Shown here: positions 10,110 through 47,193 of the stretch, piece by piece
How the letters are laid out: every line of letters starts with the position of its first letter
How positions within the stretch are numbered: position 1 is the first letter of the stretch
Source: Escherichia phage vB_EcoP_PAS59
Strand: one strand, 5' to 3'
Sequence record: OQ921332.1
Length of the DNA stretch: 64,000 nucleotides
Program-made: the position numbers and the translations under genes
Notes under the pieces: model-generated
Seen by the model: the letters and a program-made list of their open reading frames with translations, nothing else
What the model was told of the DNA's origin: nothing
Databases searched by the model: none

Positions 10110-10185
10110 GCACCCTTAGCTCAATGGACAGAGCAGCGACCTTCTAAGTCGTTGGTTACAGGTTCGAATCCTGTAGGGTGCACCA
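10110..10185 (+). tRNA. tRNA-Arg (anticodon TCT)
   Basis: hand-folded cloverleaf: acceptor GCACCCT/AGGGTGC, D-arm GCTC..GAGC, anticodon loop CTTCTAA, T-arm ACAGG-TTCGAATC-CTGT, encoded CCA. Confidence 0.85.
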
Positions 10186-24671: not shown

Positions 24672-26462
24672 ATGTCAAAGATCATTTTGGGAGACACAGG
24701 CTGTAAAGAGTGCATCTCTCATGGTCGTGATAAGACCCATAATCACATGATTCTCTTCCGAAATGAAGAGTCCGGTGAGGAGTGGGGTTCATGTAACAGA
24801 TGTGGTGCGTATGAAATCTTCGAGAAAGGAACGACGCCCACTCCTAATGAAAAGAAAGAGCTGTCCCCTGAAGAACTTCGAGAAGTCTTAGACGATTGCT
24901 TAGAGCTTCCTCAGGGAGAGTTGACTCGTCGCTTAATCCCTAAAGCTGTGTCTGAACGCTATGGATGCCGTATTGGTTTAAGTCAAACAGACGGTCAAAC
25001 TCCTGACAGCTACTTCTTCCCTCGTGAACGTGATGGGAATATTGTTGGATATGAAGTAAAACTTCTAGACAGCAAGAAATTCTATTATGTAGGTAATGTG
25101 AAAGAAGCCGACTTATTTGGTATGGCTCAAGCACAACGTGGTGACGTATACAACAAGAAACTCTTCATCTTTGAAGATCCTCTCTCTTGTATGTCTGGGT
25201 TCCACGTACTTACCGCGTTTACAAACGCAACTAACATCAAACCTGCTTGCGTCTCTCTTCCGTTCGGTGCAGGTTCAATCTCTTCTGTCTTATCAAGAAA
25301 CCGTGATTTTATTAATGGTTTCGAGGAGATTGTACTCTGCATGGACAATGATGATGCAGGTGAGATTGCTTTAACTAAGGGTCGTTCTCTGTACCCGCAT
25401 GTTAAGTTTTCAAGGATTCCAAAAGGTACGTTCACTTATAACGGACAAGAAAAGGAAATCAAAGATGCAAACGACATGTTACTGGCAGGGAGAGGTCAAG
25501 AGCTTTTCAATAATCTTAAGTATTCAGCTAAGCGGGAATCTCCTGCTGGAGCTGTTACAGTTTTTGATTGCCTCGAAGATGCTCTGAAGAAAGCGGAATG
25601 GGGTATTCCTTATCCGTGGAAAACTCTTAACGACATGACCTTTGGTATTCGTTGGGGAGAGATGGTTGCAATCGGCGGTGGTGTTGGTTCAGGTAAAACC
25701 TTAATCGCACACGAACTGGTAGCATGGCTTTGCCTTGAGCATGGTTTTAATGGTGGTGGCTTCTTCTTGGAAGAGAAGGTAGGCATGTCTGTTAAGAACA
25801 TTGCTGGTAAGTCTGCATCTGTTCCATTTCACCGACCAGATGTTGAGTATGAAGAAAGCCAGCTACGAGATGAAGCACTTCGATACGCTGATAAGTTTTT
25901 CTTATACGACAACTTTGGACAGAATGAGTGGGAAGACATTAAGCAGTGTATTCGCTTTTGGGTAGTTGAGAATCAATGTAAGTTTATCATCCTTGATAAC
26001 ATCACTGCATTGGTATCTCACTTAACTCCATCCGAAGTGAATACAGAAATCAGTAAGATTGCTTCAGAGCTTGCTGGTATGTGTAAGGAATTAGACTTCA
26101 CTGCTTTTGTGTTATCTCACTTGAATGCTCCGGCGGGCGGTGCCCCTCACGAAGAAGGTGGTCAGGTTAAAGAAGTACAGTTTACTGGCTCACGTTCATT
26201 AATGCGCTGGTGTCAATGTATTATCGGTTTCGAACGTAATAAACAAGCGGATGGGTTAGGTAAAAACTTGTCAATCATACGTCTGCTCAAAGAGCGTAAC
26301 TATGGACAGACGGGGGTTTGCTATACCAAATATATTAACGAAACAGGTCGTCTTGTAGAACGAGAAGATCATGAAGTTGATGAAGATAATCCGTTTACAG
26401 TCACCAACGGAGAAGATGCAGCTTCCTTACTCTCACAAGAAGGGGAGGCGCGTCCGTGGTAA
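24672..26462 (+). CDS. T7 gp4-like primase-helicase
   Basis: ORF track; RBS AGGAGG; zinc ribbon CKEC...CNRC; Walker [10 protein letters not shown]. Confidence 0.85.
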
Positions 26463-27004
26463 AGAAACTGTATGCGTTTGATATTGAAGGTGATAACCTC
26501 TATGACGGTATTCAGAATGTCTGGTGTATATGGATATTTGATGTACTGTCTGGAGAACGGTGGGGGTATCGCCCTCACCAAATTGAAGAAGCACTACACA
26601 AACTGAAAGAAGCTGATGTAGTAATAGGTCACAATATTATTGATTTTGACCTTCCTGCTTTGTTTAAATTCTATTCTCATGTGATACCTTTTCGTTTTAA
26701 TGTCTTTGATACTCTGTGCCTGAGTCGATACCTCAAGCCTGACCGTATTGGTGACAGTCCAGAATACCCCAAAGGCGACCCTAGACATGGCCCTCGCGGT
26801 CATGGCCTCAAGCAATGGGGTGAATTTCTGGGAGAGCTGAAGGGTGATTATGGTGAACAGGAAGAAGCATGGGACGCATTCACTGAAGACATGTTCACAT
26901 ATTGTGAGCAAGACGTTAACTTGACAGTTAAGGTTTACATGTGTCTTTGCCAAATGGCAGGATTTGATTATAAGAATCCCCCATCTCTCAACTGGAAAAT
27001 GTAG
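26456..27004 (+). CDS. family-A DNA polymerase, N-terminal 3'-5' exonuclease domain (separate ORF)
   Basis: ORF track; Exo I motif FDIEG; [38 protein letters not shown] align with T7 gp5 residues ~1-190 as recalled; ends at a stop. Confidence 0.8.
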
Positions 27005-27006
27005 AA

Positions 27007-28479
27007 ATGATTAAGATTCCATTATCTGAATTGAACCTTCAAGAAGGAGAAGCCCTCAGTGTAGGGCTTGACCTGATTCGTAATTTGATCAGAGATAACG
27101 TAGTCCCTGATGGCATCTATCCTGTTATTGCAGGTGGTGCTATCCGTGATACGTTCTTTCAAAATAGAACTCCGAATGATGTTGATATCTTCCTAGTTCA
27201 AGGAGGATTACGTTGGAACGCTCGTCAGGAAAATAGCCCTGCTAACGTAGGTAATGCTGCACTTTTCCTTGACAACTTCTTATCTTGGACAGAAAGTAAA
27301 GGGCTTCAGGTTACATCTCGACTAATTCAGCCTGTTAACGGGACAACCTATGCTGAAGCGCTTTTCACTTTCCAAGAGATTCTGGAAATCGAGATTGATC
27401 AAGTTAAAATCCAGATGATGATTAATCTACCTTTGGATATGGATACTTTAAGCCGTCGCTTCCCTATGATCTGTCAAGGGTTTATGACTCTTGGTAATCT
27501 GTATGTGTCAAACGAAGGTTTGTTTGCAATGTCATACACTCGTGACATTCCTGTGGTGTCCAGTCGTGAAATGAAGTATGTTCACAAGAAGTGGCCTGAA
27601 GCAACTGTTGCAGTTTATAGCAGTTCTACCGAATATATGCACCTTGCAATGGGAGCTTTCGGTGAGCCAGAAGTTCACCTGATTAGTGATTTAGTTGGAC
27701 CTATGGCTGGTGTAAATTTATATCAGAATCAGCGTCGTCATTATACCCTGAAGATGATGGAAACTACATTAAACATTCCTCAGGAAAGGGGTCGTAGTTA
27801 TCTGGACGAGGAAGTTAACCTACAGACAGAATGGTCTAGTGGATTAACCACTATAGGTGCTGAAGCAATTACACGACCTTGGACTCCGGGAACTAACAGA
27901 CGAGATCTTCAAGCTTTTAATGAAGAAACTTCTCGAACTGTTCGAGGAGGTGTTGTAGGGTATAACGTACAACCTCATGAAAGACCTCGTGATACTTTCA
28001 CTGGTAGTTTTGGTAGTGCACACTCTTCTGGAATGGATACTCGTACATGGCATGTCCAAGGAGGAACTGCTCGTCCTATTCCCTCTCCGTCAATGGATGA
28101 TTTGCAGCGTTCTCGTCGTTCATGGGAAACAGTAAGCTCTGTTGTTCAGGGTCTACGTGCTAGTGATATTGAACGTGTAGAAGTTGGTGATTTGCCAACC
28201 TCTACAGAAGATCGAGTATCAGCTATAGCGGCTCGTGAAGCTGCTCATATTGGTTTTGCATCATTAGCTAATGACGCTAACGAAGCTCCTCGACCTGTTG
28301 GTCGTCGTAATGGTCTAGCTCACTCTGACACTGCACTTGGTGCAGAACTACGAGCAGCAGCTCGTGAGCTATCTGGTGAGCTTCACAACAACCTGGCAGG
28401 TGTTACACTATCTCGTGAAACAGCTCGTAATATGATTAATAATTTGGCATCATCTGTACAAGGAAACAGAAACTCATGA
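27007..28479 (+). CDS. Pol-beta superfamily nucleotidyltransferase (CCA-adding/poly(A) polymerase-like head) with low-complexity C-terminal half
   Basis: ORF track; GGAIRDTFFQNRTPNDVDIF matches the GGxVRD...DxD signature. Confidence 0.5.
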   Translation: MIKIPLSELNLQEGEALSVGLDLIRNLIRDNVVPDGIYPVIAGGAIRDTFFQNRTPNDVDIFLVQGGLRWNARQENSPANVGNAALFLDNFLSWTESKGLQVTSRLIQPVNGTTYAEALFTFQEILEIEIDQVKIQMMINLPLDMDTLSRRFPMICQGFMTLGNLYVSNEGLFAMSYTRDIPVVSSREMKYVHKKWPEATVAVYSSSTEYMHLAMGAFGEPEVHLISDLVGPMAGVNLYQNQRRHYTLKMMETTLNIPQERGRSYLDEEVNLQTEWSSGLTTIGAEAITRPWTPGTNRRDLQAFNEETSRTVRGGVVGYNVQPHERPRDTFTGSFGSAHSSGMDTRTWHVQGGTARPIPSPSMDDLQRSRRSWETVSSVVQGLRASDIERVEVGDLPTSTEDRVSAIAAREAAHIGFASLANDANEAPRPVGRRNGLAHSDTALGAELRAAARELSGELHNNLAGVTLSRETARNMINNLASSVQGNRNS

Positions 28480-29009
28480 GTCTTTTAGGTTCTCAAGAAT
28501 TACACAGCGTTATTGATAATGGCTTTTTAGATGCGGAGCATAAATATGTTAACGCTGCTAGTGTGGATATCCGTATTGGTGATACTATCCTTGTTGAAGA
28601 GCAGGCTGATGGTATTGTTGACATTGATGCTAAAGAAAACCTCAAGTGGAAAGAAGTAAAAATCCCTGAAGATGGTATCGTTATCACTCCGGGACAGTTC
28701 TTCTTAGCTCACTCAATGGAAGAGTTTAACCTTCCAGACAATATTTCAAGTCTGTTTGTACTCCGCTCCTCAATGGCTCGTTGTGGTTTAAACCATCTCC
28801 ATGCTGGTTGGGCTGATGCAGGGTTTAATAACAGTAAGCTGACCTTTGAGTTCCATAACGTTACTCACAATCACAGCTTACGAGTTCGTGCTGGGATGCG
28901 TGTCGGTCAAATGGTTATGTTTGAACACTCTCACGCTGGTGATGATTCCTATGCAGTGAAGGGTCGTTATAACAACTCCGATGGGGTTGTTGCTTCTAAA
29001 GGTGTATAA
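28476..29009 (+). CDS. dcd: dCTP deaminase / dUTPase-superfamily protein
   Basis: ORF track; AASVDIRIGD and RSSMARCGL resemble Dcd motifs. Confidence 0.6.
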   Translation: MSLLGSQELHSVIDNGFLDAEHKYVNAASVDIRIGDTILVEEQADGIVDIDAKENLKWKEVKIPEDGIVITPGQFFLAHSMEEFNLPDNISSLFVLRSSMARCGLNHLHAGWADAGFNNSKLTFEFHNVTHNHSLRVRAGMRVGQMVMFEHSHAGDDSYAVKGRYNNSDGVVASKGV

Positions 29010-29027
29010 CTGATGGAGTTTGGAACA

Positions 29028-29225
29028 ATGAAAAGACGTTGGGTTGTTCGTGTTCACTGGAGCAGTGGTACAGAATCAATGGGTATCAGAAACACTCGTC
29101 AAGAAGCTCGCGCTCATAAGAAGTTCCTATTAAGCTGCGAAAGTACTATTGACAAGATCACTATCCACAAAGCTCAGGACTTTAAATCAGGTCGTTTCTA
29201 TATCAGCGGAAAGGTACATTACTAA
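29028..29225 (+). CDS. small protein (tandem paralog 1, ends KVHY)
   Basis: internal ATG of ORF track 29013..29225; W.VRV.W...TRQEAR shared with next gene. Confidence 0.4.
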   Translation: MKRRWVVRVHWSSGTESMGIRNTRQEARAHKKFLLSCESTIDKITIHKAQDFKSGRFYISGKVHY

Positions 29226-29431
29226 TGGCTAAATTATGGGCAGTTCGTGTTAAATGGGCTAACAAAGATCTCGGTGGTGACTGTCTTAAATTATTCGACA
29301 CACGACAAGAAGCTCGTCTTGCTAAGAAAGCTACAAAAGCTTTAGGACTCGCTGAAAAAGTGGATATTCATCGCTGGTTTCAAAATGATAATAACAGTGC
29401 TGGGTCCTTGACTAGCAAGGTCCACTACTAG
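29225..29431 (+). CDS. small protein (tandem paralog 2, ends KVHY)
   Basis: ORF track. Confidence 0.4.
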   Translation: MAKLWAVRVKWANKDLGGDCLKLFDTRQEARLAKKATKALGLAEKVDIHRWFQNDNNSAGSLTSKVHY

Positions 29432-29501
29432 TTGGTAGTAGATATGATAACTCTCAAATGTATATACAGTATAAGAATATTGTATGAAACAGGAGAGAGT
29501 T

Positions 29502-29831
29502 ATGTTAGATTTGAGTAAAGTGGCCCCGCCATCTGAAGAGATTAGCAAAGCTAAAGTTATGCAGCAGTTCTATCATCGTGACATGCTTGGTCGTTATATC
29601 AAGAATCGTGATGTTGTTGCATGGTCTATTGGAAACCAAGGCTATCTTCTCAAAGTGTTGCAAGTTACTGGCTCAACAGCCAAGCGAGTCAAAGTCTATG
29701 ACCCTGAGATGGGGCGTTCTAAATCGGTAGACCCACAGAATTGCATTGTTATTACACAGCAGGTCATGGATAACATTGCTCGTAATGTAGCTAATTCAAC
29801 TAACTTAGAAGGGGATGCACCTAATGCATAA
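29502..29831 (+). CDS. hypothetical protein
   Basis: internal ATG of ORF track 29484..29831 behind AGGAGAGAG. Confidence 0.4.
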   Translation: MLDLSKVAPPSEEISKAKVMQQFYHRDMLGRYIKNRDVVAWSIGNQGYLLKVLQVTGSTAKRVKVYDPEMGRSKSVDPQNCIVITQQVMDNIARNVANSTNLEGDAPNA

Positions 29832-29919
29832 TAATGTCTTCGACTTACCAGAACTAACAAGAGTGGGTTCTAGTAATCCATTCTCTACTACTGATTCTTC
29901 TATCTCTCGTCTTGAGGGA

Positions 29920-30390
29920 ATGAATAAACTGATTAGCAGTAACAGCCTAGAGCACATTCTTTGTGGTGTGCAGGCTAACCTTGAACTTCTACACATCAAA
30001 GCAAAGAACTACCACTGGAACGTCTCTGGAGCTGGTTTCCAAGGTGTTCATGGGATGTTCGATGAGTTAGAAGATTATGCTCGTGAGGCAGGCGACCGAA
30101 TAGCAGAGCGTATGCGCTTCCATTGTGTTAAGGTGGATGCCACTGCTAGTAACTATTTAGGTCACGCTTGGTTCCGAGAAGGTAACGCTGATCTCGACAT
30201 GGACGGTATGCTTTCCGACATGTGCATGACTCTTATGTGTATCATTGAGAAGATGGACGAGTTTGATTCAGACTTGTGCACCTATCCAGTTGATCAGAGT
30301 ATGCTTCAAGAAATTAATGAAGGTCTTGGCAAGTTCTGTTACTTTGTCAAGAGCAACATGTCCCACTCTGGTGGTGATGTGTCTTACTAA
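29920..30390 (+). CDS. Dps-like ferritin-fold protein (start could be as early as 29815)
   Basis: ORF track 29815..30390; HIKAKNYHWNVSGAGFQGVHGMFDE...DRIAERMRF aligns with the Dps ferroxidase region. Confidence 0.5.
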   Translation: MNKLISSNSLEHILCGVQANLELLHIKAKNYHWNVSGAGFQGVHGMFDELEDYAREAGDRIAERMRFHCVKVDATASNYLGHAWFREGNADLDMDGMLSDMCMTLMCIIEKMDEFDSDLCTYPVDQSMLQEINEGLGKFCYFVKSNMSHSGGDVSY

Positions 30391-30453
30391 TCAAACCTCC
30401 GCCCTGTCTCGTTTGTTCAAGAGGTGGGGCGAACTTTTTATAAGGATGTGAAT

Positions 30454-30633
30454 ATGTTTTCAGCAATCGTATGGTCTGTGTGGGCAATTCTTGTTGGCGG
30501 TATCGTTTATCTGGCTCAGAAGCAGATGCTTAAAGAGAATCCGAATGATGCCAAACCTATTAAACATGGTAGCATTGCTCTGGTAGTTTTCTCTGTTGTC
30601 ATTCCTTTCCTTCTCCACCTGTTGACTGCATAA
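30454..30633 (+). CDS. small membrane protein (tandem paralog 1)
   Basis: internal ATG of ORF track 30424..30633; IVW.VW.I.VG.VIY...KENP. Confidence 0.4.
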   Translation: MFSAIVWSVWAILVGGIVYLAQKQMLKENPNDAKPIKHGSIALVVFSVVIPFLLHLLTA

Positions 30634-30642
30634 GGGTTTGAT

Positions 30643-30828
30643 ATGATTTCACTGATTGTGTGGGCCGTGTGGTCGTTAATAGTTGGTACTGTTATATATA
30701 AAGCTCGAAATTTAGCAATTAAAGAAAACCCAGCAGAAGAGGATGTTAAAGCTATCAAGCTAGGTAGTGTTGTTCTGGTACATTTTGCTATAACACTACC
30801 TCTTGTTATTATTCTTTGTATGCTATAA
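30643..30828 (+). CDS. small membrane protein (tandem paralog 2)
   Basis: ORF track. Confidence 0.4.
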   Translation: MISLIVWAVWSLIVGTVIYKARNLAIKENPAEEDVKAIKLGSVVLVHFAITLPLVIILCML

Positions 30829-31018
30829 GGAACCCAAAGAGTGAAACTAAACCTACCTGAAGAATTACAAGCACATGCCATTATCGTTAGTGGCTGTGTG
30901 ATGGGTCTTGGTCAGACAAAGAAGATTGCTCATGACTTAGCAAAAGGTCAGTATAAATCTTTTATTGTTGTTCCTGCTACCCAGCGTCATATCAATCTGT
31001 TTATTAACAAGGAATAGA

Positions 31019-31294
31019 ATGAGTAAAGTAATTAAGTTTTATAGTGATCAGTGTGCTCCATGTAAAGCAATGGCTCCTACCTTTGAGAAGGTTGTTAAGG
31101 AGTTTGATGTAGAAGTGGAAGAGATTAACATCCTTGAAGGTGATGGTCGTGAACAAGCTGTTAAGTATGGTGTACGAAGTATCCCTGCTTTCGTTGTGCC
31201 TGACCGTAACAGTGGTGCACACTACAGCCTCTCCGGTATGCAGACTGAAGCAAACCTGAAAGCATTTTTGGATACAGCTCTAGGCAATAAATAA
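31019..31294 (+). CDS. thioredoxin
   Basis: internal ATG of ORF track 30965..31294 behind AAGGA; CAPCK active site; YGVRSIPAFVV and LKAFLDTALG align with E. coli TrxA. Confidence 0.75.
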   Translation: MSKVIKFYSDQCAPCKAMAPTFEKVVKEFDVEVEEINILEGDGREQAVKYGVRSIPAFVVPDRNSGAHYSLSGMQTEANLKAFLDTALGNK

Positions 31295-31309
31295 TAAGGG
31301 TATTCACGG

Positions 31310-31801
31310 ATGAATAATATTGACCCGTCAATAAAAGAAGCTCTTGATTACGACCCTTTGACTGGAGATTTCCGATGGGTTAAAACTTATGGAAAAGGAC
31401 ACAAAGGGTCTATAGCTGGTTCTGTAAATACCAATGGGTATTTGAGAATCGTTTATAAAGGTGCTAGATACTACGCTCATCGACTTGCTTACTGGTGGGA
31501 CACTGGATTGCTTCCTGAAGAAGTAGATCACATAGACCGCAACAGGATAAACAACAAAAGAGAGAATCTTAGGGGGACTACTAGATCAGGAAATGGCCTA
31601 AACAAAGTAGCTCAGAGTAATAATTTATCAACCGGAGTGATTGGAGTGACTGTCCATAGAAGGAAAAGTGGCTCTATTGCTTACCGGGCGGTATTTAAAT
31701 CTAAGCACATAGGACTCTTCTCAACCATAGAAGAAGCCTCTAGGGAATATAATAAAGTCAAGGAGACTTACATAAATGACAATCAAAGCTTCATTAATTG
31801 A
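31310..31801 (+). CDS. HNH homing endonuclease (HNH + AP2-like)
   Basis: ORF track; AHRLAYWWDTGLLPEEVDHIDRNRINNKRENLR; paralogous to 42242, 45226, 46618; overlaps ThyX start. Confidence 0.7.
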   Translation: MNNIDPSIKEALDYDPLTGDFRWVKTYGKGHKGSIAGSVNTNGYLRIVYKGARYYAHRLAYWWDTGLLPEEVDHIDRNRINNKRENLRGTTRSGNGLNKVAQSNNLSTGVIGVTVHRRKSGSIAYRAVFKSKHIGLFSTIEEASREYNKVKETYINDNQSFIN

Positions 31802-32423
31802 TAACTTCGGTTCAGATCTTACAGTAGTCAATGCTGCTCGTGTAACTATGGGGGTAGAAAGGGAAGAATTAAAAGAAAGTGACACTCGTCTAATAAATTT
31901 TCTAGCTCGGGAACGGCACGTAAGTCCTTTTCGTCACCCACAAGCGAGCTTCAGATGCGAAGCTCCTATAGCAATTGCACGACAGTTACAGAAGCATCAA
32001 GTTGGTTTTTCTTGGAACGAGATGAGTCGTAGATATAAAGATGGAGCAGTGGATATTTTCATACCTAAAGAAATCTTCTCCCGTCCAGATGATCTACATT
32101 CTGGTTCTGGAATACTTCTTGAAGGGGAGGAAGAGGCAAAAGCTTTAGCTTTGTTTAACTCTGCGTACGAGGCATCTCTTGCTAGTTATGACGAATTGAT
32201 TAAGTTCGTAGCTCCTGAACAAGCTAGATTTGTTTTACCTCAAGGTATGGTAACTACTTGGTACTGGACTGGTAGCTTGTATGGCTGGTTTGAATTGTGT
32301 CGTCAACGACTATCATCCCATGCTCAATATGAAGTTCGACTATTTGCTCAGTCATTAGATGAAGAGATGGCTAAACTCTATCCAATCTCATGGGCAGCTT
32401 TGAAGAAAACTTTGGAGAGTTAA
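31776..32423 (+). CDS. thyX: flavin-dependent thymidylate synthase (ThyX-like)
   Basis: ORF track; RBS AAGGAGA; RHPQASFR and RLSSHAQYEVR motifs. Confidence 0.6.
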   Translation: MTIKASLIDNFGSDLTVVNAARVTMGVEREELKESDTRLINFLARERHVSPFRHPQASFRCEAPIAIARQLQKHQVGFSWNEMSRRYKDGAVDIFIPKEIFSRPDDLHSGSGILLEGEEEAKALALFNSAYEASLASYDELIKFVAPEQARFVLPQGMVTTWYWTGSLYGWFELCRQRLSSHAQYEVRLFAQSLDEEMAKLYPISWAALKKTLES

Positions 32424-32568
32424 TTTTGGAAGAAAACGATGATGATGTTTTCTGTACACGGTGCGGTATGACAGTTGATGATGCTTACGACCCTACAGTA
32501 GAGATTTGTCCTTGCTGCGGAGTTTGTGAGTATTGTTGTAGTCACAATTCAGATGAATAGGTAAAACT

Positions 32569-32754
32569 GTGGACTTATACAAAACATGTAGCTTCTGTCA
32601 AAAGCAGAAGCTTCTTATCAACTTCAAGCTGAACGAGGAAACAGGTTTGGGTCATGCTTTTTGTCATGATTGCAGACACTACCTTGAACAGAAACAATAT
32701 ATAAACTGGTTGCATTATTTCAACCCCAGCATCTACGAGCACAAGGTTATCTAA
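32569..32754 (+). CDS. small Cys/His zinc-finger-like protein
   Basis: ORF track. Confidence 0.35.
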   Translation: MDLYKTCSFCQKQKLLINFKLNEETGLGHAFCHDCRHYLEQKQYINWLHYFNPSIYEHKVI

Positions 32755-33075
32755 ATGATCAACGATAGTACATTTAGGACTGGTAACGGAAATGAAATCA
32801 GTCCTGCTGAAGTGATTAAACGACACAGAACACAGATGCTTATCCACTCCTATTTGTATTATTGGTTGGATGACCCAATCTGGTCTGACGATAAGTGGCA
32901 ACAAGTGGCTGATGACTTAACCACCTTGCAAGAGATGTATCCTGAGCCTATTGGATTCTTCGATTCAGAGTTCAATGGATGGAATGGCTCCACTGGTATG
33001 CATCTTCCTCATGACGAGCGTATAGCTTGTATGGCTACTGAAGTATACCGTTTACATAAGGACAAATCAATCTGA
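32755..33075 (+). CDS. hypothetical protein
   Basis: ORF track. Confidence 0.45.
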   Translation: MINDSTFRTGNGNEISPAEVIKRHRTQMLIHSYLYYWLDDPIWSDDKWQQVADDLTTLQEMYPEPIGFFDSEFNGWNGSTGMHLPHDERIACMATEVYRLHKDKSI

Positions 33076-33257
33076 AATGTTTTAAATGTGAATCAACTCT
33101 TCTCCATTTGGACTCGAAAGTAATACGGGAGCTTGCCAAAGGCTCCCCGACTAAAGGGAAGAATAAGAAGTTTGTCGAAATTAAGGTTATAGGTATCCAT
33201 TGCTCAGAGTGTAAATCCTGTAGCTTCTTATATGAAGAACACGGAGGTAGGAAATGA
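33072..33257 (+). CDS. candidate zinc-ribbon protein with no canonical start codon (CTG 33072 or ATC 33066 proposed)
   Basis: open frame 33060-33257 encodes CFKC...CSECKSC; stop overlaps the PhoH ATG; AAGGA 9 nt upstream of CTG. Confidence 0.3.
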   Translation: MKCFKCESTLLHLDSKVIRELAKGSPTKGKNKKFVEIKVIGIHCSECKSCSFLYEEHGGRK

Positions 33258-33991
33258 GTCGTAGAGAATCTCGGAAAGCATCACGGAGAGAATTACGTCG
33301 TGAAGCTCTCGTCACCAAGAAAGGAAAGCGGGAATTTGAAGAAGTAGTTCTTGCTAAGCCGGTAGTACCTCAGAACCAATTCCAGAGTGAGCTGCTTGAT
33401 GCAATTAAAACCAAACAGGTTGTATTCACAGATGCTCCTGCTGGCTGTGGTAAGACATTCGTAATCACTTCTACAGTGATCGATGCTCTGAAGAGTGGGA
33501 AGATTGAGAAGATTATCCTAAGCCGACCTGCTGTTGGTATGGGTAACAGTCTAGGATTACTTCCCGGTGGGCTTCGTGAGAAATTTGAACCATACCTGAT
33601 GCCAATTGTTGATGTTATCACTCAGCGTTATGGTAAAGGCTTCTATGAGTGTCAAATTGGTAATGGTAACATTGAGTTTGTACCTCTGGAATACCTCCGT
33701 GGCCGTTCATTCAACGATGCTATTGTGATTGTTGATGAGTTCCAGAATACCACTCCTGATGAAGCATATTCAATTATGACTCGTCTTGGTGAAACCTCTC
33801 AGATGTTCTGTATGGGGGACACCAATCAGCACGATATGCGTGGTGAGAGTGGTCTAGATTGGGCTACTGATTTCATATACCGTCACAAATTGTTTGAATT
33901 TGCCGCTCTAGTAGATGGTGAATCGGATGATATTGTTCGTTCAGGTTTCTGTAAAGCTATTGTCAAAGCAATGGAATCTGAAAAATCATAA
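33254..33991 (+). CDS. phoH: PhoH-like ATPase
   Basis: ORF track; Walker A AGCGKTF; Walker B VIVDEFQN. Confidence 0.8.
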   Translation: MSRRESRKASRRELRREALVTKKGKREFEEVVLAKPVVPQNQFQSELLDAIKTKQVVFTDAPAGCGKTFVITSTVIDALKSGKIEKIILSRPAVGMGNSLGLLPGGLREKFEPYLMPIVDVITQRYGKGFYECQIGNGNIEFVPLEYLRGRSFNDAIVIVDEFQNTTPDEAYSIMTRLGETSQMFCMGDTNQHDMRGESGLDWATDFIYRHKLFEFAALVDGESDDIVRSGFCKAIVKAMESEKS

Positions 33992-33993
33992 AC

Positions 33994-34004
33994 ATAATGT
34001 ATAC
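33994..34004 (+). promoter_or_regulatory. candidate phage-sigma promoter motif ATAATGTATAC
   Basis: member of the recurring TAATGTATA motif set; ~32 nt upstream of ATG 34036. Confidence 0.4.
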
Positions 34005-34035
34005 TCCTTAGTGTACACTGATATATTAAGGAGTT

Positions 34036-34353
34036 ATGATGACCGATAAGGCGAAAAGAGATTATGCACAAGAACGAAGAACTGCAATCAAACGTGGGGA
34101 GACAGGTGTTGGTAGCAAGAGCGGAGATGCTCAGCGCCACCGTGCACGTCGCATCGTTGAAAAACGCGATGGAAAAGCTGCTGTCCGAGGTAAAGATGTT
34201 GGACACAAACGATCAATCAAGTCGGGAGGTTCTAATGCGTCAAGTAACTTACGTGTTGAATCAGTCTCTCGAAATCGCTCGAACGGCGGCAAAAGTGGAG
34301 ATCGTGCTGGAAAATCAGCAGGCGGTCGCAAAGGAGCTTTAAGCTCAAGCTAA
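34036..34353 (+). CDS. highly basic Lys/Arg/Gly/Ser-rich protein (an alternative helical ORF exists in another frame, 34064..34342)
   Basis: ORF track; RBS AAGGAG before ATG 34036. Confidence 0.4.
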   Translation: MMTDKAKRDYAQERRTAIKRGETGVGSKSGDAQRHRARRIVEKRDGKAAVRGKDVGHKRSIKSGGSNASSNLRVESVSRNRSNGGKSGDRAGKSAGGRKGALSSS

Positions 34354-34357
34354 TATA

Positions 34358-34388
34358 AGGCTACCCATTTCGGGTGGCCTTTTCTTTT
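34358..34388 (+). terminator. rho-independent terminator
   Basis: AGGCTACCC-loop-GGGTGGCCT followed by TTTTCTTTT. Confidence 0.6.
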
Positions 34389-34409
34389 ATGTAACCTAAG
34401 GTAATAAAT

Positions 34410-34661
34410 ATGTCTAAAGTAACTTATATCACTGTAACTGATTTCCTTCCTTCTCTGAACACAACTGAGAGTTATACTTTTCCTGTAGAAAATGTTACAA
34501 GCTCTGTTGAGATGATTCAGTTTAACAAAACAACAGCTCGTACTAATGTAACCCTTCGTGGCCCTGATGGCAAGTTCATCTCCTTCCGTGATAAGGGTGT
34601 TCCTAAGCGTATTGCTAAATCTATTGAAAATCTGAAACCTTTCCCCAACTTTGGTGCATAA
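34410..34661 (+). CDS. small protein (tandem paralog 1; KTARTNV...NLKPFP family)
   Basis: ORF track. Confidence 0.45.
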   Translation: MSKVTYITVTDFLPSLNTTESYTFPVENVTSSVEMIQFNKTTARTNVTLRGPDGKFISFRDKGVPKRIAKSIENLKPFPNFGA

Positions 34662-34662
34662 T

Positions 34663-34920
34663 ATGAAGATTAGCTTAATCCAAATTCGTGATCATCTCTT
34701 TAATGGTGACGCTCAGACTCATGACTACAAGGTTAATCAAGGACAACACCCTACCAATCACCTGATTGGAGGGATTTCTTTATTGCCTAATAAAACAGCA
34801 CGGACTAATGTAATGATTCGTGGTAAGGATGGTAAATTCCTCTCTTATCGTGACCCTGAAATCTGTGCTATTGTTCGTACAGCCATGAACAACCTAAAAC
34901 CATTCCCGACAGTGGAGTAA
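34663..34920 (+). CDS. small protein (tandem paralog 2)
   Basis: internal ATG of ORF track 34651..34920. Confidence 0.45.
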   Translation: MKISLIQIRDHLFNGDAQTHDYKVNQGQHPTNHLIGGISLLPNKTARTNVMIRGKDGKFLSYRDPEICAIVRTAMNNLKPFPTVE

Positions 34921-34923
34921 GTT

Positions 34924-35274
34924 ATGCCAGTACCTCAACGCCTAGAACGTCACTGCGTTCTCAAATGGGACAATATTCATGACAACCTCTCTAGTCAAGA
35001 GTTTCGTCAGTTTATTGAATTGACAGCGAAGATTAACCGAAACCGACCAGCTCGAAATTATGTGGTGGTTAGTGACAAGTATCCAGAGCTGTATGAGCAG
35101 GTGTGGGGTATGAAACTTGCACAAGTTCAGAGGAACAGTAACGAACGGAGAGAAGCTCGTAGACAGAGAGCAGAAGATATTCCAGCAGTCTTTTATGTGG
35201 ATGAAGCGGAATCCTACGAACAGTTAGATATTGTTGAGGATAACCAAGCGTTCACTGATTTAATATACCGATAA
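34924..35274 (+). CDS. hypothetical protein
   Basis: ORF track. Confidence 0.45.
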   Translation: MPVPQRLERHCVLKWDNIHDNLSSQEFRQFIELTAKINRNRPARNYVVVSDKYPELYEQVWGMKLAQVQRNSNERREARRQRAEDIPAVFYVDEAESYEQLDIVEDNQAFTDLIYR

Positions 35275-35290
35275 CTATAAGGAGTGGGTG

Positions 35291-37012
35291 ATGGATAACC
35301 CTGATAAGTTACCTTTCATAACGGAGATGACAGTCGCTGATATAATCTCAAAACAGGCGAAGCATGGAGTCAACTTCAACAGAAGAAACGCTCGGTGGTT
35401 TGTTCATCTTCTCAAAGAGATTATTGTCAATATTGATAAAGAACTGATTCCTCTCCTCCCCAAAATGCGGGTGGATGGTTCAACTTATTCTAAACCTTTT
35501 AAGAAATCAGGTGCTTTACAGAAGTGGCCTCAGCTCTATTGCGATAGGGTTGGTCTTAAAAGAGAAGATATCGGTGGGGCGTTTACTTGCGTTGAGTATG
35601 TAGATTTTGACCCATCAAAAGATGCACGTATTAAAGAAGCCTTGATGGATGAAGGTTTTATACCTCCAGAGTGGAATTATTCTAAGAAACCTTGGAATAC
35701 TTTTGAAATTCGTAAAGCTATGAAGAAGTATGGTACATACTCTGCATGGTATTCTGCTTGGATTCGAGGTAACGCTAAAGAGAAACAGACAGCAGAGATG
35801 ATAGATGCTGATATCCGAAGGTTTTTGGATAAGCACTTCCGTTATCACACTGTCAATTATATGAAAGCCTATGTCAGCGGTTTAGGTCTTAACCCTAACA
35901 GGAAGAAGCCTGTAACCTTTGATGAAATCAAAAAAGCTTTGGCTACATCAAACAAGTGGCCTACAGCCCCTACAAACCTTGAGGAGACTCTTGAAGAGGG
36001 GCTTGGGGGTGAACTAGGGGGTGTAGGAAGTTTGCTTAAGAGACGCGTTGTAGCGGCTCACAGGCTAGGTTTGATTAGCGGGCTTATCGACAAGGAACGT
36101 AAAGATGGTAAACTGTCCGCCGAAGCTAATAGCTGCGCTACTCCGACATTTCGTTTTAAACATCGCATTGTTGTTAATATTCCTTCTCGCGGTTTGTTTG
36201 GTCACGAGTGCCGCAGTCTTTTTCAATCTGACTATTCCTCAGACGATAGTCATAACCATCCTTTCATCATTACCAACCATATCCCTGATGGGTGTTACGT
36301 ACGAAAGGGTACTAACATTATCTACGAAATGGGAAAACCGGGCAAGAAAGACAAACCAATAGGTGCTTATAAATTTTATGTACCTGCTGGTCGTGAAGTC
36401 TTCTTAGGTTATGATGGCTCTGGTCTTGAGCTGAGGATGCTTGCTCATTACCTTATCAAAGAGTGTCGTGAGATGCTCGCTGAAGCAGAGCGGGAAAACA
36501 ACCCAGCTAAGAAACGGGAAGCTGAACGCGGTCTAGCTTCTGCTGTTATGTACAGAGATATTCTTTTAGAAGGGGATATTCACTCACATAACCAAAAACT
36601 TGCTGGCCTTCCTACTCGTGATAATGCTAAAACGTTTATCTACGCATTCAACTACGGAGCTGGTGACGCTAAGTTAGGAAGCATCGTAGGTGGTGGCTCT
36701 GATGAAGGGGCTGTCATGAGGGCAAGATTCTTAGCAGAGAATCCTTGTATTGCAATTCTTATTGAACGTATGACAGAGAAAGCACAAAGTGGATACATCT
36801 ACGGTGTGGATGGACGTCGTATTACAATGAGGAGGGATGCAACTGGAAAGGTTATGGTTCATAAAGCCTTAAACACCCTCTTACAGAGCGCTGGGGCGAT
36901 TGTTATGAAGTATGCAATGCTATTCCTTAATAAATGGATTGAGCGTGATGGTGTTCGTTGTGCGAAGGTTATTGACATGCATAAACTTCATTGTGCATGT
37001 AAAAGTTGGTGA
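35291..37012 (+). CDS. family-A DNA polymerase, polymerase domain (separate ORF, ~8.3 kb downstream of the exonuclease ORF)
   Basis: ORF track 35288..37012; motif A GYDGSGLELRMLAHY; motif B RDNAKTFIYAFNYGAG; NTLLQSAGA; collinear with T7 gp5 from about residue 200. Confidence 0.85.
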   Translation: MDNPDKLPFITEMTVADIISKQAKHGVNFNRRNARWFVHLLKEIIVNIDKELIPLLPKMRVDGSTYSKPFKKSGALQKWPQLYCDRVGLKREDIGGAFTCVEYVDFDPSKDARIKEALMDEGFIPPEWNYSKKPWNTFEIRKAMKKYGTYSAWYSAWIRGNAKEKQTAEMIDADIRRFLDKHFRYHTVNYMKAYVSGLGLNPNRKKPVTFDEIKKALATSNKWPTAPTNLEETLEEGLGGELGGVGSLLKRRVVAAHRLGLISGLIDKERKDGKLSAEANSCATPTFRFKHRIVVNIPSRGLFGHECRSLFQSDYSSDDSHNHPFIITNHIPDGCYVRKGTNIIYEMGKPGKKDKPIGAYKFYVPAGREVFLGYDGSGLELRMLAHYLIKECREMLAEAERENNPAKKREAERGLASAVMYRDILLEGDIHSHNQKLAGLPTRDNAKTFIYAFNYGAGDAKLGSIVGGGSDEGAVMRARFLAENPCIAILIERMTEKAQSGYIYGVDGRRITMRRDATGKVMVHKALNTLLQSAGAIVMKYAMLFLNKWIERDGVRCAKVIDMHKLHCACKSW

Positions 37013-37073
37013 ACTCGGTGAAACCCGACCATTAAGTTGAGGGCAATACCGAGCTAAGCTATTAGGAGGTGAT

Positions 37074-37469
37074 ATGGCTAAGAAAGATCTAGTGTTAGAA
37101 ACTACTGACACAGGATGTATCATCCCTATCTCACACAAACTTAATAAAGATGGTTACTTCAGAAAGGTAATAGATGGCAAATGGGTCATGTATCACCGAT
37201 ACGTCATGGAAGAAAAGTTTGGAAAGATTCCTGATGGGTTTGAAGTAAACCATAAATGCAAGAACAGAGCTTGCTGTAACACAGACCACCTAGAGATTCT
37301 ATGGGGGAGTGCTCATGCAATAGAATCCAATACAGGTAGAAACAGAGAAAGACAGGAAGCTGCTAAAGAATTCTGGCTTAATAATGAATGTACCGGTGTT
37401 GCTCTTGCGGAAAGATTTGGTGTGAGCTTTGGAATCGCTTGTAGATGGATTCGAAAGTGGAAAGTGTAG
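37074..37469 (+). CDS. HNH homing endonuclease inserted in the DNA polymerase gene
   Basis: ORF track; RBS AGGAGG; EVNHKCKNRACCNTDHLEILWGSAHAIESNTG. Confidence 0.75.
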   Translation: MAKKDLVLETTDTGCIIPISHKLNKDGYFRKVIDGKWVMYHRYVMEEKFGKIPDGFEVNHKCKNRACCNTDHLEILWGSAHAIESNTGRNRERQEAAKEFWLNNECTGVALAERFGVSFGIACRWIRKWKV

Positions 37470-37586
37470 AGACTATCCTTTGGGAGTAGGGGGTTAACAG
37501 GGAAACCCTCGAAGCGCCAACAACAGCAAATTAGCTATGCTGTTATGATATAGTCCGATACCCGAAGTAATTTGGGAATAACATAA

Positions 37587-37742
37587 ATGGATGAAGGTCA
37601 GTTCACTGTACATCGTGATGATGTTAACAAACTTCGTACCCTCACTGAAGAGTGTGTTCGTAAAGCAGGAGAGTACCTCAAGATGGAATGTCCTCTGGCA
37701 TCTGATTGCAAAATTGGATTAAACTGGAATCACACCCACTAA
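37587..37742 (+). CDS. DNA polymerase C-terminal segment (51 codons), separate mini-ORF or 3' exon
   Basis: translation MDEGQFTVHRDDVNKLRTLTEE...CKIGLNWNHTH aligns with the T7 gp5 C-terminus (...GKMGPNWAICH); in-frame TAA immediately precedes the ATG. Confidence 0.5.
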   Translation: MDEGQFTVHRDDVNKLRTLTEECVRKAGEYLKMECPLASDCKIGLNWNHTH

Positions 37743-37759
37743 TTTGTAGTGGAGGAATA

Positions 37760-37951
37760 ATGACTAGACATGTACATGAAACATGGGCCATTACGGGAGC
37801 AAAAGATGCAATTGTTTGCTGTAATGGACATTTCTGCATCTATAACACAGAAAGAAAAGCTATTCAAGAAGCGGCTGAGTTAATGGAAGAGTTTCCTGAT
37901 AAAGATTTCTCCATTAAGAATTTAACCATCAATCTCCCGTGGAAGAGCTGA
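37760..37951 (+). CDS. hypothetical small protein
   Basis: internal ATG of ORF track 37706..37951 behind GGAGG. Confidence 0.35.
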   Translation: MTRHVHETWAITGAKDAIVCCNGHFCIYNTERKAIQEAAELMEEFPDKDFSIKNLTINLPWKS

Positions 37952-38306
37952 ATCGTATTACGAAATGAACTAGTCTTATTGATTAGTTCTTTTTAAGGAG
38001 ACAAGGAAGTGGAAGAAGTAAAAAGTTCTGAATGGTGCTTGAAGCAACAAAAACTCGCACAGGAAGAAGGACGTTTTGATGATGCCAAAGTGTATGGGGA
38101 GCTTTTCCGTACATGGGTTGAACGAGAGGAGAAAGATCAATGATGGATTTGATTCGTAAACCTGCTCCAAAATGGAATGTATATTTCCAAGATGCTACAG
38201 GAAAATTTCACAACCAACTGGTTTATTCTGACGAAGAACGCGATGAAGTCGCTGCTCAGATTAAAGCAGGCGGTGGTACAGTTCTCAAAATTTATGAAAG
38301 GGAGTA

Positions 38307-45956: not shown

Positions 45957-46347
45957 GAAGACAAGATGCTCTGGTCAGTGGACTGAAGCACGTTATAACT
46001 CCTTCATTAAGTCAGGGATTCGTTCTCTGACTAGGAAATGGAAACCTATGTTTGATTCTCTCAAAGAGGCTCAGACAGAACGTAAAATCAACCCTAAAAC
46101 TGGCAAACTGGCAATGCACTATAAGTGTGCTATGTGTGGTAATGATTCTCCTCTTAAAGACGTAGCAGTAGACCATATAGAGCCTATTGTTCCAGTGGAC
46201 CATGAAGCTACTTGGGATGAAATCATCGAGAGGGCTTTAGTTGAGAAAGATGGTTTTCAAGTCTTATGCAAAGAGCCTTGCCATAAGATAAAAACTAAGG
46301 AAGAGAATGATGCAAGACGTGAATTTAAAAAATCTAGAGACTCCTGA
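45943..46347 (+). CDS. HNH-family nuclease, putative
   Basis: ORF track; CAMCGNDSPLKDVAVDHIEPIV ... LCKEPCH. Confidence 0.5.
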   Translation: MAKAEKTRCSGQWTEARYNSFIKSGIRSLTRKWKPMFDSLKEAQTERKINPKTGKLAMHYKCAMCGNDSPLKDVAVDHIEPIVPVDHEATWDEIIERALVEKDGFQVLCKEPCHKIKTKEENDARREFKKSRDS

Positions 46348-46609
46348 AGAAAAGGAAGTCTTTGAATCCATGAACAAGGAAAGCACAAATGATCAAGTAT
46401 CTACGAAACAAGTTCTTCGCTTTAGCTATCGTAATTGGAGAGGCGAGATTGCAGACCGCTCCGTTATTCCTATACGAACCTCAGTTGCTTCTTCCCGTTA
46501 TCATAATGGGGGCAAACCTTGTTGGATAATGACCGCTTGGGACAATGACAAGAATGACATTCGAGAGTTTAAGCTCTCTGATATTATTAAGTATTATGAT
46601 TTAATCTAG
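46307..46609 (+). CDS. hypothetical protein (start uncertain)
   Basis: ORF track. Confidence 0.35.
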   Translation: MMQDVNLKNLETPEEKEVFESMNKESTNDQVSTKQVLRFSYRNWRGEIADRSVIPIRTSVASSRYHNGGKPCWIMTAWDNDKNDIREFKLSDIIKYYDLI

Positions 46610-46617
46610 GAGGTCTT

Positions 46618-47121
46618 ATGAATGAAGAGAAGTGGACCCATTTTCTATACTCCTCTGAATCTCCTTCTGGATTTCTCTGGAGGAGTAAACCAGCCCCTTT
46701 TGTAAAAATAGGAAGCGTGGTAGGTACGAAAAACAAGAAAGGTTATTGGGAAATCAACACCAAAAACTCTGGAAGAATTAAAGCTCATCGGTTGGTTTGG
46801 GAGTACCATAATGGACCTATCCCAGAAGGGTTTTTGGTAGACCACATAGATAATAACCTAGACAACAATACAATAGAAAATCTTAGACTTTGTAATGCGA
46901 AGGAAAGTGCTAGGAATACTAGAGGTTGGAGCAGTAAAAGAGATTCTTTACCTAAAGGTATTCATGACAACTCTCATGGAGGAAAGAATCCGGGATACTA
47001 CCAAGCTCGAATTTACATATCAGGTAAATCTTACACGAAATCTTCATACGATATCTTATATTTACACAGATGGCTTAAGAGTAAAAGAGAGGAACATCAT
47101 GGAGAGTTTAAAAAAGATTGA
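46618..47121 (+). CDS. HNH homing endonuclease
   Basis: ORF track; AHRLVWEYHNGPIPEGFLVDHIDNNLDNNTIENLR. Confidence 0.65.
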   Translation: MNEEKWTHFLYSSESPSGFLWRSKPAPFVKIGSVVGTKNKKGYWEINTKNSGRIKAHRLVWEYHNGPIPEGFLVDHIDNNLDNNTIENLRLCNAKESARNTRGWSSKRDSLPKGIHDNSHGGKNPGYYQARIYISGKSYTKSSYDILYLHRWLKSKREEHHGEFKKD

Positions 47122-47155
47122 TGAATTCGATGGATTCTAACATCTAGAAATAAAG

Positions 47156-47190
47156 AAGCCCCCTTCCTTTTCAGGTTGGGGGCTTTTCTC
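47156..47190. terminator. bidirectional rho-independent terminator between convergent transcription units
   Basis: AAGCCCCC-loop-GGGGGCTT with T-rich tracts on both strands. Confidence 0.6.
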
Positions 47191-47193
47191 GTT

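Follow-up and report, generated by a model that had tools for sequence, protein, structure and literature searches.

A T7-type DNA polymerase probably encoded by an exonuclease gene and a distant, intron-containing polymerase gene in a phiEco32-like coliphage

Introduction

How many polypeptides make up a family A DNA polymerase whose coding sequence appears in three pieces? The question is raised by the phiEco32-like (Gordonclarkvirinae) coliphage vB_EcoP_PAS59 (OQ921332.1), of which a stretch of 64,000 nucleotides (hereafter the window) was analysed. Its ORF list contains, in this order, a 182-aa exonuclease ORF (26456-27004), 21 further ORFs, a polymerase ORF (35291-37012), an HNH ORF and a 51-codon ORF (37587-37742); a first-pass annotation had placed the three polymerase pieces at exactly these coordinates and had taken them for three separate polypeptides. 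We consider it very probable that this T7-type family A replicase consists of two gene products, a 182-aa exonuclease and a 614-aa polymerase, the gene of the latter being interrupted by a mobile group I intron. The division into exonuclease and polymerase is already known and published (PMC9965538, section 3.3.3; PMC3517423; PMC10201439), with public records annotating the split-off gene as "DNA polymerase exonuclease subunit", and the intron is a new instance of a known intron family.

Results and Discussion

Layout of the locus

The following features, all on the + strand, were assigned:

24672..26462, +, T7 gp4-like primase/helicase gene, given for context (Pfam DnaB_C and Toprim_2; so annotated in Bas86 and SU7)
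26456..27004, +, 3'-5' proofreading exonuclease, 182 aa (Pfam PF01612, DNA_pol_A_exo1; PHROG; fold)
27007..35274, +, intervening module of 21 ORFs (ORF list; Bas86 and SU7 annotations)
35291..36982, +, polymerase exon 1 (564 codons), encoding thumb, fingers and motifs A and B and ending with the motif C His
36983..37589, +, group I intron, IA2-like (PhiI/W31 type), 607 nt (boundaries against an intron-less allele; core helices; homology)
37074..37469, +, predicted intron-encoded HNH homing endonuclease gene, 131 aa, in the P6 loop (Pfam HNH_3, E 9e-12)
37590..37742, +, polymerase exon 2, 50 codons plus stop, starting with the catalytic Asp-Glu of motif C

The exonuclease and polymerase genes lie 8.3 kb apart, and the 21 ORFs between them agree with the first-pass count of at least 20. 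They comprise a nucleotidyltransferase, a dCTP deaminase, a Dps-like DNA-binding protein, a thioredoxin, a free-standing HNH protein, ThyX, PhoH and small ORFs. Terminators and a candidate promoter had also been proposed in this interval: a terminator scan retained one strong terminator-like hairpin (34357-34381), but sigma-70-like promoter matches were no more numerous than chance predicts (25 found, 29.9 expected). Phages of the phiEco32-like group use their own sigma factor. At the gathering threshold, an Rfam scan of the whole window returned a tRNA and nothing else.

The separation of exonuclease and polymerase is kept in every relative examined, and is also found in LUZ24-like and Aeromonas/Vibrio phages. 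Bas86, SU7, ZCPS1 and APT65 share one gene order, with primase/helicase followed by exonuclease, variable cargo and polymerase; the first two genes are neighbours in ZCPS1 and APT65 too. The slot between exonuclease and polymerase holds 22 genes in Bas86, the nearest annotated relative; in Bruynoghevirus ZCPS1 it is 1.4 kb long, in Aeromonas phage APT65 9.6 kb.

In the window, the 3' end of the primase/helicase gene and the start of the exonuclease gene share 7 nt (CGTGGTAAAG). A primase/helicase-exonuclease fusion produced by frameshifting was considered and rejected, as CGTGGTAAAG lacks a slippery run and the overlap is not kept in APT65.

The stand-alone exonuclease gene

The exonuclease ORF starts with GTG, preceded at 7 nt by the Shine-Dalgarno (SD) sequence GGGGAGG, and phage EK010 encodes the same product (100% identity). 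The protein is specifically related to the exonuclease domain of T7 gp5 and is not a generic DnaQ-like nuclease: it aligns with T7 gp5 residues 4-142, matches PHROG families named 'DNA polymerase exonuclease subunit', and its AF2 model (pLDDT 91.9) has exclusively T7 gp5 entries as best fold matches (TMq 0.70-0.75). The residues of Exo I (D9, E11), Exo II (N60, D65) and Exo III (Y149, D153) are invariant in 31 homologues, and all 36 homologues inspected for domain content (105-208 aa) are without a fused polymerase domain. Because the catalytic residues are invariant across these stand-alone homologues, the loss of proofreading linkage that the first-pass annotation had offered as an option is unlikely.

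Conversely, none of the best 120 polymerase homologues is long enough to include an exonuclease domain, and both the exonuclease and the polymerase match T7 gp5 best, by sequence and by fold (Foldseek for the polymerase). That the two are separate genes giving separate polypeptides, as first proposed, holds for the whole phage group. The distance of 8.3 kb and the terminator-like hairpin between the genes could fit an exonuclease acting as an independent nuclease in repair, recombination or host DNA degradation, with a polymerase devoid of proofreading. We regard this as improbable, given the specific relationship to T7 gp5 and the fact that, across three phage groups, four annotated genomes have a stand-alone exonuclease gene beside the primase/helicase gene and an exonuclease-less T7-type polymerase gene downstream. 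In S-SBP1-like phages, where an analogous split occurs, an AlphaFold-predicted complex superimposes on an intact enzyme, and the stability of family A polymerases reportedly depends on the exonuclease domain (both PMC10201439). Under the two-gene reading, the exonuclease, encoded directly after and overlapping the primase/helicase gene, and the polymerase, encoded 8.3 kb downstream, would associate non-covalently into a T7 gp5-like enzyme.

The polymerase gene and its interruption

The polymerase ORF starts with ATG downstream of an SD sequence (AAGGAG), matches Pfam DNA_pol_A and contains motif A (DGSGLELR) and motif B (RDNAKTFIYAFNYGAG). When its N-terminus was searched against the PDB with phmmer, the sole match was between residues 64-133 and T7 residues 295-360. 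Exon 1 was delimited with the Pfam DNA_pol_A match and the T7 gp5 alignment, its 3' boundary being set by the uninterrupted Bas86 gene. Unspliced, the frame of exon 1 runs 9 codons into the insert (KLHCACKSW) and then meets a TGA, giving the 574-aa ORF product. An intein was rejected on the same observation, as the insert is not in frame.

ORF 37587-37742 matches the final 46 positions of Pfam DNA_pol_A and, once exon 2 is joined to exon 1, the product aligns with T7 gp5 ...VHDEIQ... through to the C-terminus. The comparison with relatives carrying an intact gene, which had been suggested at the outset, proved informative: the intron-less Bas86 allele, in a genome where the exonuclease is separate too, fixes unique intron boundaries that are exact to the nucleotide. 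Without 36983-37589, the coding sequence has the same 614-aa frame as in Bas86 and other intron-less relatives, and P0037, an uninterrupted protein of 614 aa, matches the product along its entire length at 99% identity. The last piece exists as an ORF, but its true boundary is 37590, since the in-frame ATG at 37587-37589 that precedes exon 2 represents the last three bases of the intron. RNA splicing is predicted to join 35291-36982 to 37590-37742, that is ...IDMH to DEGQF... with the junction peptide VIDMHDEGQFTVHR, in agreement with the Bas86 allele. In catalytic motif C (MHDE), the insertion point separates the His codon from the Asp codon, and motifs A, B and C are all intact once the exons are joined.

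Structure and identity of the group I intron

The core helices of the intron, among them the P3/P7 pseudoknot (helix table, + strand), are:

36975-82 with 36993-37000, +, P1
36986-92 with 37590-96, +, P10
37005-11 with 37515-21, +, P3
37014-19 with 37048-53, +, P4
37024-26 with 37041-43, +, P5
37058-60 with 37463-65, +, P6
37469 and 37471-75 with 37551-56, +, P7
37476-85, +, P7.1
37489-37510, +, P7.2
37522-44, +, P8
37561-76, +, P9
37589, +, omega-G

A single guide, CUUCAUU-GUGCAUGU, forms both P10 and P1. In P1 the end of exon 1, ACAUGCAU (36975-82), pairs with GUGCAUGU (36993-37000) over 8 bp with a terminal U.G, the U being the last base of exon 1 and the pair invariant across nine distinct introns; in P10, CUUCAUU (36986-92) pairs with exon 2 GAUGAAG (37590-96). 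In 13a and Sekstaphage-1, synonymous changes in the exons are accompanied by covarying changes in the guide. With the 8 terminal nucleotides of exon 1 and the 7 initial ones of exon 2 paired in this way, the intron would excise itself from the mRNA by guanosine-initiated two-step transesterification.

P7.1 has the form UCC-N4-GGA and is followed by GUA and the P7.2 hairpin, and the HNH ORF lies between the strands of P6. This linkage of P7.1 and P7.2 by GUA, the ORF in P6 and insertion at site 881 place the intron in the IA2/PhiI-W31 subgroup as defined in PMC3428280. The minimum free energy fold gives P1, P3, P4, P5, P7.2, P8 and P9.

Compensatory (double) changes were found in 21 of the 55 core base pairs, with 96.8% of cells paired, a count biased towards the structure as the helix strands were extracted by hand with sequence anchors. 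This procedure was adopted because, with the ORF deleted, introns of different clades were misaligned by MAFFT at P7.2, P3' and P8. None of 500 shuffles scored as high and slid controls reached 30-39%; P7 and P4 are invariant and hence uninformative for covariation. In a permissive scan against Rfam RF00028 the intron stayed below the gathering score of 50, with partial matches of 30.9 bits (E 6.8e-6) and 10.9 bits that span P4-P6 and J8/7-P7-P9, likely because the core is divided by the 396-nt ORF in P6; an intron without an ORF, located in the polymerase gene of a relative, obtained 102 bits.

The whole element, including the ORF, shares 66-69% nucleotide identity with the intron found at the same site (His|Asp) in T7-like phages, around which gene 5 of 13a and K1F is annotated as a joined CDS. 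Among the homologous introns, those of T7-like phages and Vp_R1 offer no in-frame start codon ahead of exon 2 and so must splice. Bonocora and Shub (2004; title cited in PMC3428280) are said to have reported self-splicing of the homologous PhiI and W31 introns.

These observations bear on the reading in which the exonuclease, a 574-aa body and a 51-aa C-terminal peptide act in trans as three separate polypeptides, with a free-standing HNH gene splitting the polymerase gene as in Aeh1 nrdA. The three ORFs do exist, the last with an in-frame ATG (37587), and several GenBank records annotate it as a CDS of its own with a predicted RBS. We nevertheless judge this reading very improbable, and the third piece of the first-pass annotation is better described as an exon. 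Around the HNH ORF lies a ribozyme core that is conserved and shows covariation, together with the P1/P10 pairings, U at -1 and omega-G, and start codons are missing at the equivalent place in the T7-like and Vp_R1 introns. A cut between the His and Asp of motif C would put the catalytic Asp-Glu on a 50-residue peptide, and no good SD sequence precedes the ATG at 37587, the nearest GGG lying within the P9 stem.

The predicted HNH endonuclease and intron mobility

The HNH protein matches PHROG 6254 (E 3e-41) and has no sequence relative among solved structures. Its ATG is preceded by the SD sequence GGAGG and its stop codon abuts P7. Homologous HNH ORFs are intact (131-132 aa) in 12 of the 12 introns compared.

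The intron occurs sporadically: 10 of 150 matching records cover at least 80% of a query consisting of the intron plus flanks, and in phiEco32, SU10, Bas86 and the majority of other relatives the match is confined to the exons. Intron and exons also differ in their relationships, the intron being 91.9% identical to that of Kuravirus N1203 (exons 71-78%) and 84.6% identical to that of SU7 (exons 94-96%). The intact ORF, the sporadic spread and the discordant histories of intron and exons identify, at the sequence level, a mobile intron with a predicted HNH homing endonuclease, and point to recent intron transfer within Gordonclarkvirinae. The endonuclease would cut or nick intron-less polymerase alleles of co-infecting relatives, thereby spreading the intron by homing.

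An assembly artefact, which the first-pass annotation had named as grounds for abandoning its proposal, or a decaying pseudogene, would leave a broken polymerase and a phage dependent on host polymerases. Such an origin accounts for the presence of stop codons and for nothing further, and can practically be dismissed: the three-ORF layout is present in 98 public records of independently sequenced phages, all catalytic motifs and the HNH ORFs of 12 genomes are intact, and the intron boundaries are nucleotide-exact against intron-less alleles.

Comparison with known systems

The split polymerases of phiEco32-like, LUZ24-like and S-SBP1-like phages share with the window a T7 gp5-type exonuclease gene of about 180 aa, located after the primase/helicase gene, and an exonuclease-less polymerase gene. 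There is no difference of substance from other Gordonclarkvirinae. In S-SBP1-like cyanophages, however, the split genes are adjacent following a recent frameshift (PMC10201439), and in LUZ24-like phages they are 1.4 kb apart, whereas 21 ORFs separate them here.

The closest counterparts of the intron are found in gene 5 of T7-like phages (PhiI and W31, with I-TslI; also annotated in 13a and K1F). The PhiI and W31 introns have been described at 'site 881' (E. coli Pol I numbering), with an ORF in P6a and in subgroup IA2 (PMC3428280). The site after the motif C His, the architecture (no P2, ORF in P6, P7.1 and P7.2 joined by GUA) and a homologous 131-aa HNH protein are common to both. In contrast, the host gene in the window is the exonuclease-less polymerase of another phage group, Gordonclarkvirinae; covariation has adapted P1, P10, P3, P8 and P9 to the new exons, the P5 loop is longer and P7.2 is shorter. 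Introns in the polymerase genes of SPO1, SP82, Bastille, Pf-WMP3 (site 674), phiL7 (676) and LUZ24 occupy other insertion sites (PMC3428280). Genes in pieces, such as Aeh1 nrdA/mobE, and inteins likewise place a homing endonuclease gene within a conserved enzyme gene, but here, unlike in Aeh1, the endonuclease gene is surrounded by a ribozyme and the pieces would be rejoined at the RNA level.

Implications

A broader proposal, which we consider rather unlikely, is that separation of the exonuclease and its translational coupling to the primase/helicase might allow an independent exonuclease:polymerase stoichiometry with tuned fidelity or processivity. The holoenzyme could then have four parts (primase-helicase, exonuclease, polymerase and a phage thioredoxin bound to a retained TBD-like thumb segment), and the fission slot could be a hotspot for nucleotide-metabolism genes (1.4 kb in LUZ24-like phages, 8-10 kb here).

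A literature search found no paper on an intron in Gordonclarkvirinae polymerase genes, and in several public records of Gordonclarkvirinae and Vp_R1 the polymerase is entered as two or three unrelated CDSs or its last exon lacks an annotation; the affected records should have a joined CDS and an intron feature. The same putatively mobile intron with its HNH gene is located at an identical catalytic-site codon boundary in the T7-type polymerases of Studiervirinae, Gordonclarkvirinae and Grimontviridae.

Open reading frames of the polymerase locus

In a nucleotide database search, 98 phage records matched 26400-38000, nearly all of them phiEco32-like Escherichia phages (Gordonclarkvirinae), with Bas86 as the top match (95.8% identity, 94% of the query covered). 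At the protein level the exonuclease is 100% identical to its counterpart in phage EK010. All ORFs named in the first-pass annotation, which had described a family-A DNA polymerase in three separated pieces, were present in the window, and the exonuclease, proposed to be collinear with T7 gp5 residues ~1-190, aligned to T7 gp5 residues 4-142. The SU7 GenBank record shows the same picture, with three "DNA polymerase" CDSs and one "homing endonuclease".

Features of the polymerase locus
26456-27004, + strand: exonuclease ORF, 182 aa; GTG start, GGGGAGG upstream; Pfam DNA_pol_A_exo1
35291-37012, + strand: polymerase ORF; ATG start, AAGGAG upstream; Pfam DNA_pol_A positions 143-334 of 381
36983-37589, + strand: intron, 607 nt; from alignment with the uninterrupted Bas86 gene
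37074-37469, + strand: HNH_3 ORF, after the polymerase ORF and before the short one; Pfam HNH_3
37587-37742, + strand: short ORF; Pfam DNA_pol_A positions 335-380

Between the exonuclease and polymerase genes 21 ORFs were counted, in line with the "at least 20" reported before, including dCTP deaminase, thioredoxin, ThyX and PhoH (names as annotated in Bas86 and SU7). As to the terminators and candidate promoter suggested earlier, one convincing terminator-like hairpin was found (34357-34381), while a promoter scan gave sigma-70-type matches at chance level, no commoner than in shuffled sequence.

The last piece of the polymerase is an exon

The short ORF had been taken for a separate third polypeptide; it is instead an exon, cut off by a group I intron. 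In the related phage Bas86 the polymerase gene is uninterrupted (614 aa), and its alignment to the window gives one sole insertion point, ...GACATGCAT | 607 nt | GATGAAGG..., where the intron-less Bas86/phiEco32 allele reads ...ATTGACATGCATGATGAAGG... The cut separates His from Asp in "MHDE", aligned to "VHDEIQ" of T7 gp5, which holds the catalytic carboxylates of motif C. Exon 1 ends in U and the intron in G, and the predicted spliced junction would be ...GACATGCAT|GATGAAGG..., encoding the junction peptide VIDMHDEGQFTVHR. Near the 5' end of the intron, 36986-37000 (CUUCAUU-GUGCAUGU) takes part in two helices, P10 with the opening 7 nt of exon 2 and P1 with the closing 8 nt of exon 1, the latter terminating in a U.G pair; this is a textbook group I internal guide sequence.

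Translation of three separate polypeptides without splicing would draw on the ATG that precedes exon 2 in the window, but this is simply the intron's final three bases, and the GGG closest to it belongs to the P9 stem. Moreover, the unspliced polymerase body would be left without the motif C Asp-Glu, and in T7-like phages and Vibrio phage Vp_R1 these genes must be spliced, since exon 2 has no in-frame start codon ahead of it. The three-piece reading holds for the separate exonuclease and is wrong for the last piece. An intein was also considered and rejected, since read-through from exon 1 meets a stop after 9 codons.

Intron family and fold

In distant-mode BLAST, similarity ran the full length of the element, starting 5 nt ahead of the 5' splice site and reaching 5-6 nt beyond the 3' one; a counterpart with 66-69% identity occupies the corresponding gene 5 position in many T7-like phages (including 13a, Sekstaphage-1, JeanTinguely, Bas104, and Yersinia and Klebsiella phages), and Vp_R1 was matched as well. 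Gene 5 of 13a and K1F has been deposited as a joined CDS around an HNH gene, and homologous HNH proteins of 131-132 aa are encoded in 12 of the 12 introns compared. In the PhiI/W31 introns of gene 5 the endonuclease ORF lies within P6a; these introns are assigned to subgroup IA2, marked by P7.1 and P7.2 linked by G-U-A (PMC3428280). The window intron shows exactly this pattern, with UCC-N4-GGA followed by GUA and the P7.2 hairpin, and is, judged from its sequence, a new member of the PhiI/W31 family in a new phage group; our literature search found no mention of an intron in Gordonclarkvirinae polymerase genes.

The standard Rfam scan did not detect the intron. A permissive scan gave two partial RF00028 matches, one of 10.9 bits upstream of the HNH ORF (P4-P6) and one of 30.9 bits (E 6.8e-6) downstream of it (P8, J8/7 (GAUAUAGUCC), P7 and P9). 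Neither reaches the gathering score (50), as expected because a 396-nt ORF sits in P6. MFE folding of the intron with its ORF removed recovered P1, P3, P4, P5, P7.2, P8 and P9 independently.

For covariation, the strands of P1, P10, P3, P4, P5, P6, P7, P7.1, P8 and P9 were taken from 12 introns (9 distinct). Standard pairs occupied 96.8% of cells, a percentage inflated because the strands were hand-picked, which leaves the compensatory changes unaffected: both sides had changed in 21 of 55 pairs. None of 500 shuffles reached the observed pairing and double-change values, and a partner-sliding control paired at 30-39%. Examples are P3 (GUUGGUG/CGCCAAC, UCUGGUG/CGCCAGA, CUCAUUG/CGGUGAG) and P9 (CCCGAA/UUUGGG, CUCCUA/UAGGAG, CUUCCA/UGGGAG, CACAGA/UCUGUG), while the P10 guide follows synonymous differences in exon 2 (GAUGAAG, GAUGAGAU, GAUGAAAU).

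Intron mobility

Most Gordonclarkvirinae (phiEco32, SU10, Bas86, E20-1 and others) gave exon-only matches, and about ten records carry the intron, including SU7, ECBP2, pEC-N1203-2Af.1 and FH3. In its exons the window most resembles the Suseptimavirus type (identities of 94-99% with SU7 and Bas86), yet its intron is only 84.6% identical to that of SU7 and 91.9% and 91.6% identical to those of Kuravirus N1203 and FH3, respectively, where the exons reach 71-78%. Such discordance between intron and exons is the outcome that homing predicts.

Related loci showed further arrangements. In Vp_R1 (MG603697; locus L004:85-2400) the deposited "DNA polymerase" CDS ends at the same His codon, followed by a homologous intron with its HNH ORF, and exon 2 (DEFQFT...) is wholly unannotated. 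A 77-kb Gordonclarkvirinae-like contig (ENA ERZ28621247 scaffold_71) has a second intron site and none at that of the window: an ORF-less group I intron of ~305 nt (locus L013:4354-4669; Rfam RF00028, 102 bits, E 3e-27) that interrupts motif B "NYGAG" inside its Tyr codon and is similar to the window intron in its P7/P7.1 core. This motif B site is probably why many polymerase clusters in the protein search are cut short at 440-457 aa.

Separate exonuclease and polymerase genes

The separation of exonuclease and polymerase is real, conserved across homologues and already known. In a search of 5.8 billion proteins none of 36 exonuclease homologues (all 105-208 aa) was fused to a polymerase domain, and the best 120 polymerase homologues (369-618 aa), among them "DNA polymerase part II" of LUZ24-like Pseudomonas phages, leave no room for an exonuclease domain. 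PHROGs families titled "DNA polymerase exonuclease subunit" match the exonuclease protein, and RefSeq uses the same label in phiEco32 and Bas86. Exo I (D9, E11), Exo II (H59, N60, D65) and Exo III (Y149, D153) are invariant in exonuclease protein alignments and line up with those of T7 gp5. T7 gp5 was also the top solved-structure match for the AlphaFold models of both the exonuclease (pLDDT 91.9; E 1.6e-9, TMq 0.70-0.75) and the uninterrupted polymerase (pLDDT 88.3; E 2.4e-25).

The order primase/helicase, exonuclease, cargo genes, polymerase is found in Bas86 and SU7, as well as in Bruynoghevirus ZCPS1 and Aeromonas phage APT65, with exonuclease-polymerase gaps of 1.4 kb and 9.6 kb in the latter two. 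We infer that a T7-like gene 5 was split long ago where its exonuclease and polymerase domains meet, after which nucleotide-metabolism genes would have built up in the gap. A more recent fission has been reported in S-SBP1-like cyanophages, where an AlphaFold complex of both products superimposes on the intact relative (PMC10201439). Given the literature, including this predicted complex, the two proteins may reasonably be expected to associate in the window's phage.

Neighbouring features

A phage thioredoxin gene (31019-31294) lies between the exonuclease and polymerase genes. Polymerase thumb residues 64-133 align weakly to T7 gp5 residues 295-360, which we take to overlap the T7 thioredoxin-binding domain. 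In the related phage Privateer, the phage thioredoxin has been proposed as processivity factor (PMC7881722).

A second, free-standing HNH endonuclease gene (31310-31801; 163 aa, PHROG 99) lies between thioredoxin and thyX, with a 26-nt overlap into the start of thyX. An extra HNH gene that follows phoH in Bas86 (locus L001:10142-10522) is absent from the window, so homing endonuclease content differs among close relatives. The 106-aa ORF at 32755-33075, named "NAD-dependent DNA ligase" or "DNA ligase" in relatives, is far too short to encode a whole ligase; it may represent the N-terminal domain on its own. Next after the polymerase gene, the ORF at 37706-37951 has a Pfam hit to PF25744 (phage T4 Y13H protein; E 2e-29). 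With the TTG listed as its start it runs into the 3' end of exon 2; the true start is probably the ATG near 37753, after GGAGG.

Elsewhere in the window, a tRNA gene (10110-10182; Rfam tRNA, 73 bits) is probably tRNA-Arg(UCU), since its anticodon loop reads CU-UCU-AA. The cumulative GC skew reaches its maximum at ~46000-48000, where G+C also increases from about 0.40 to 0.46; this suggests that, downstream of the replication genes, the coding strand switches or one module gives way to another.
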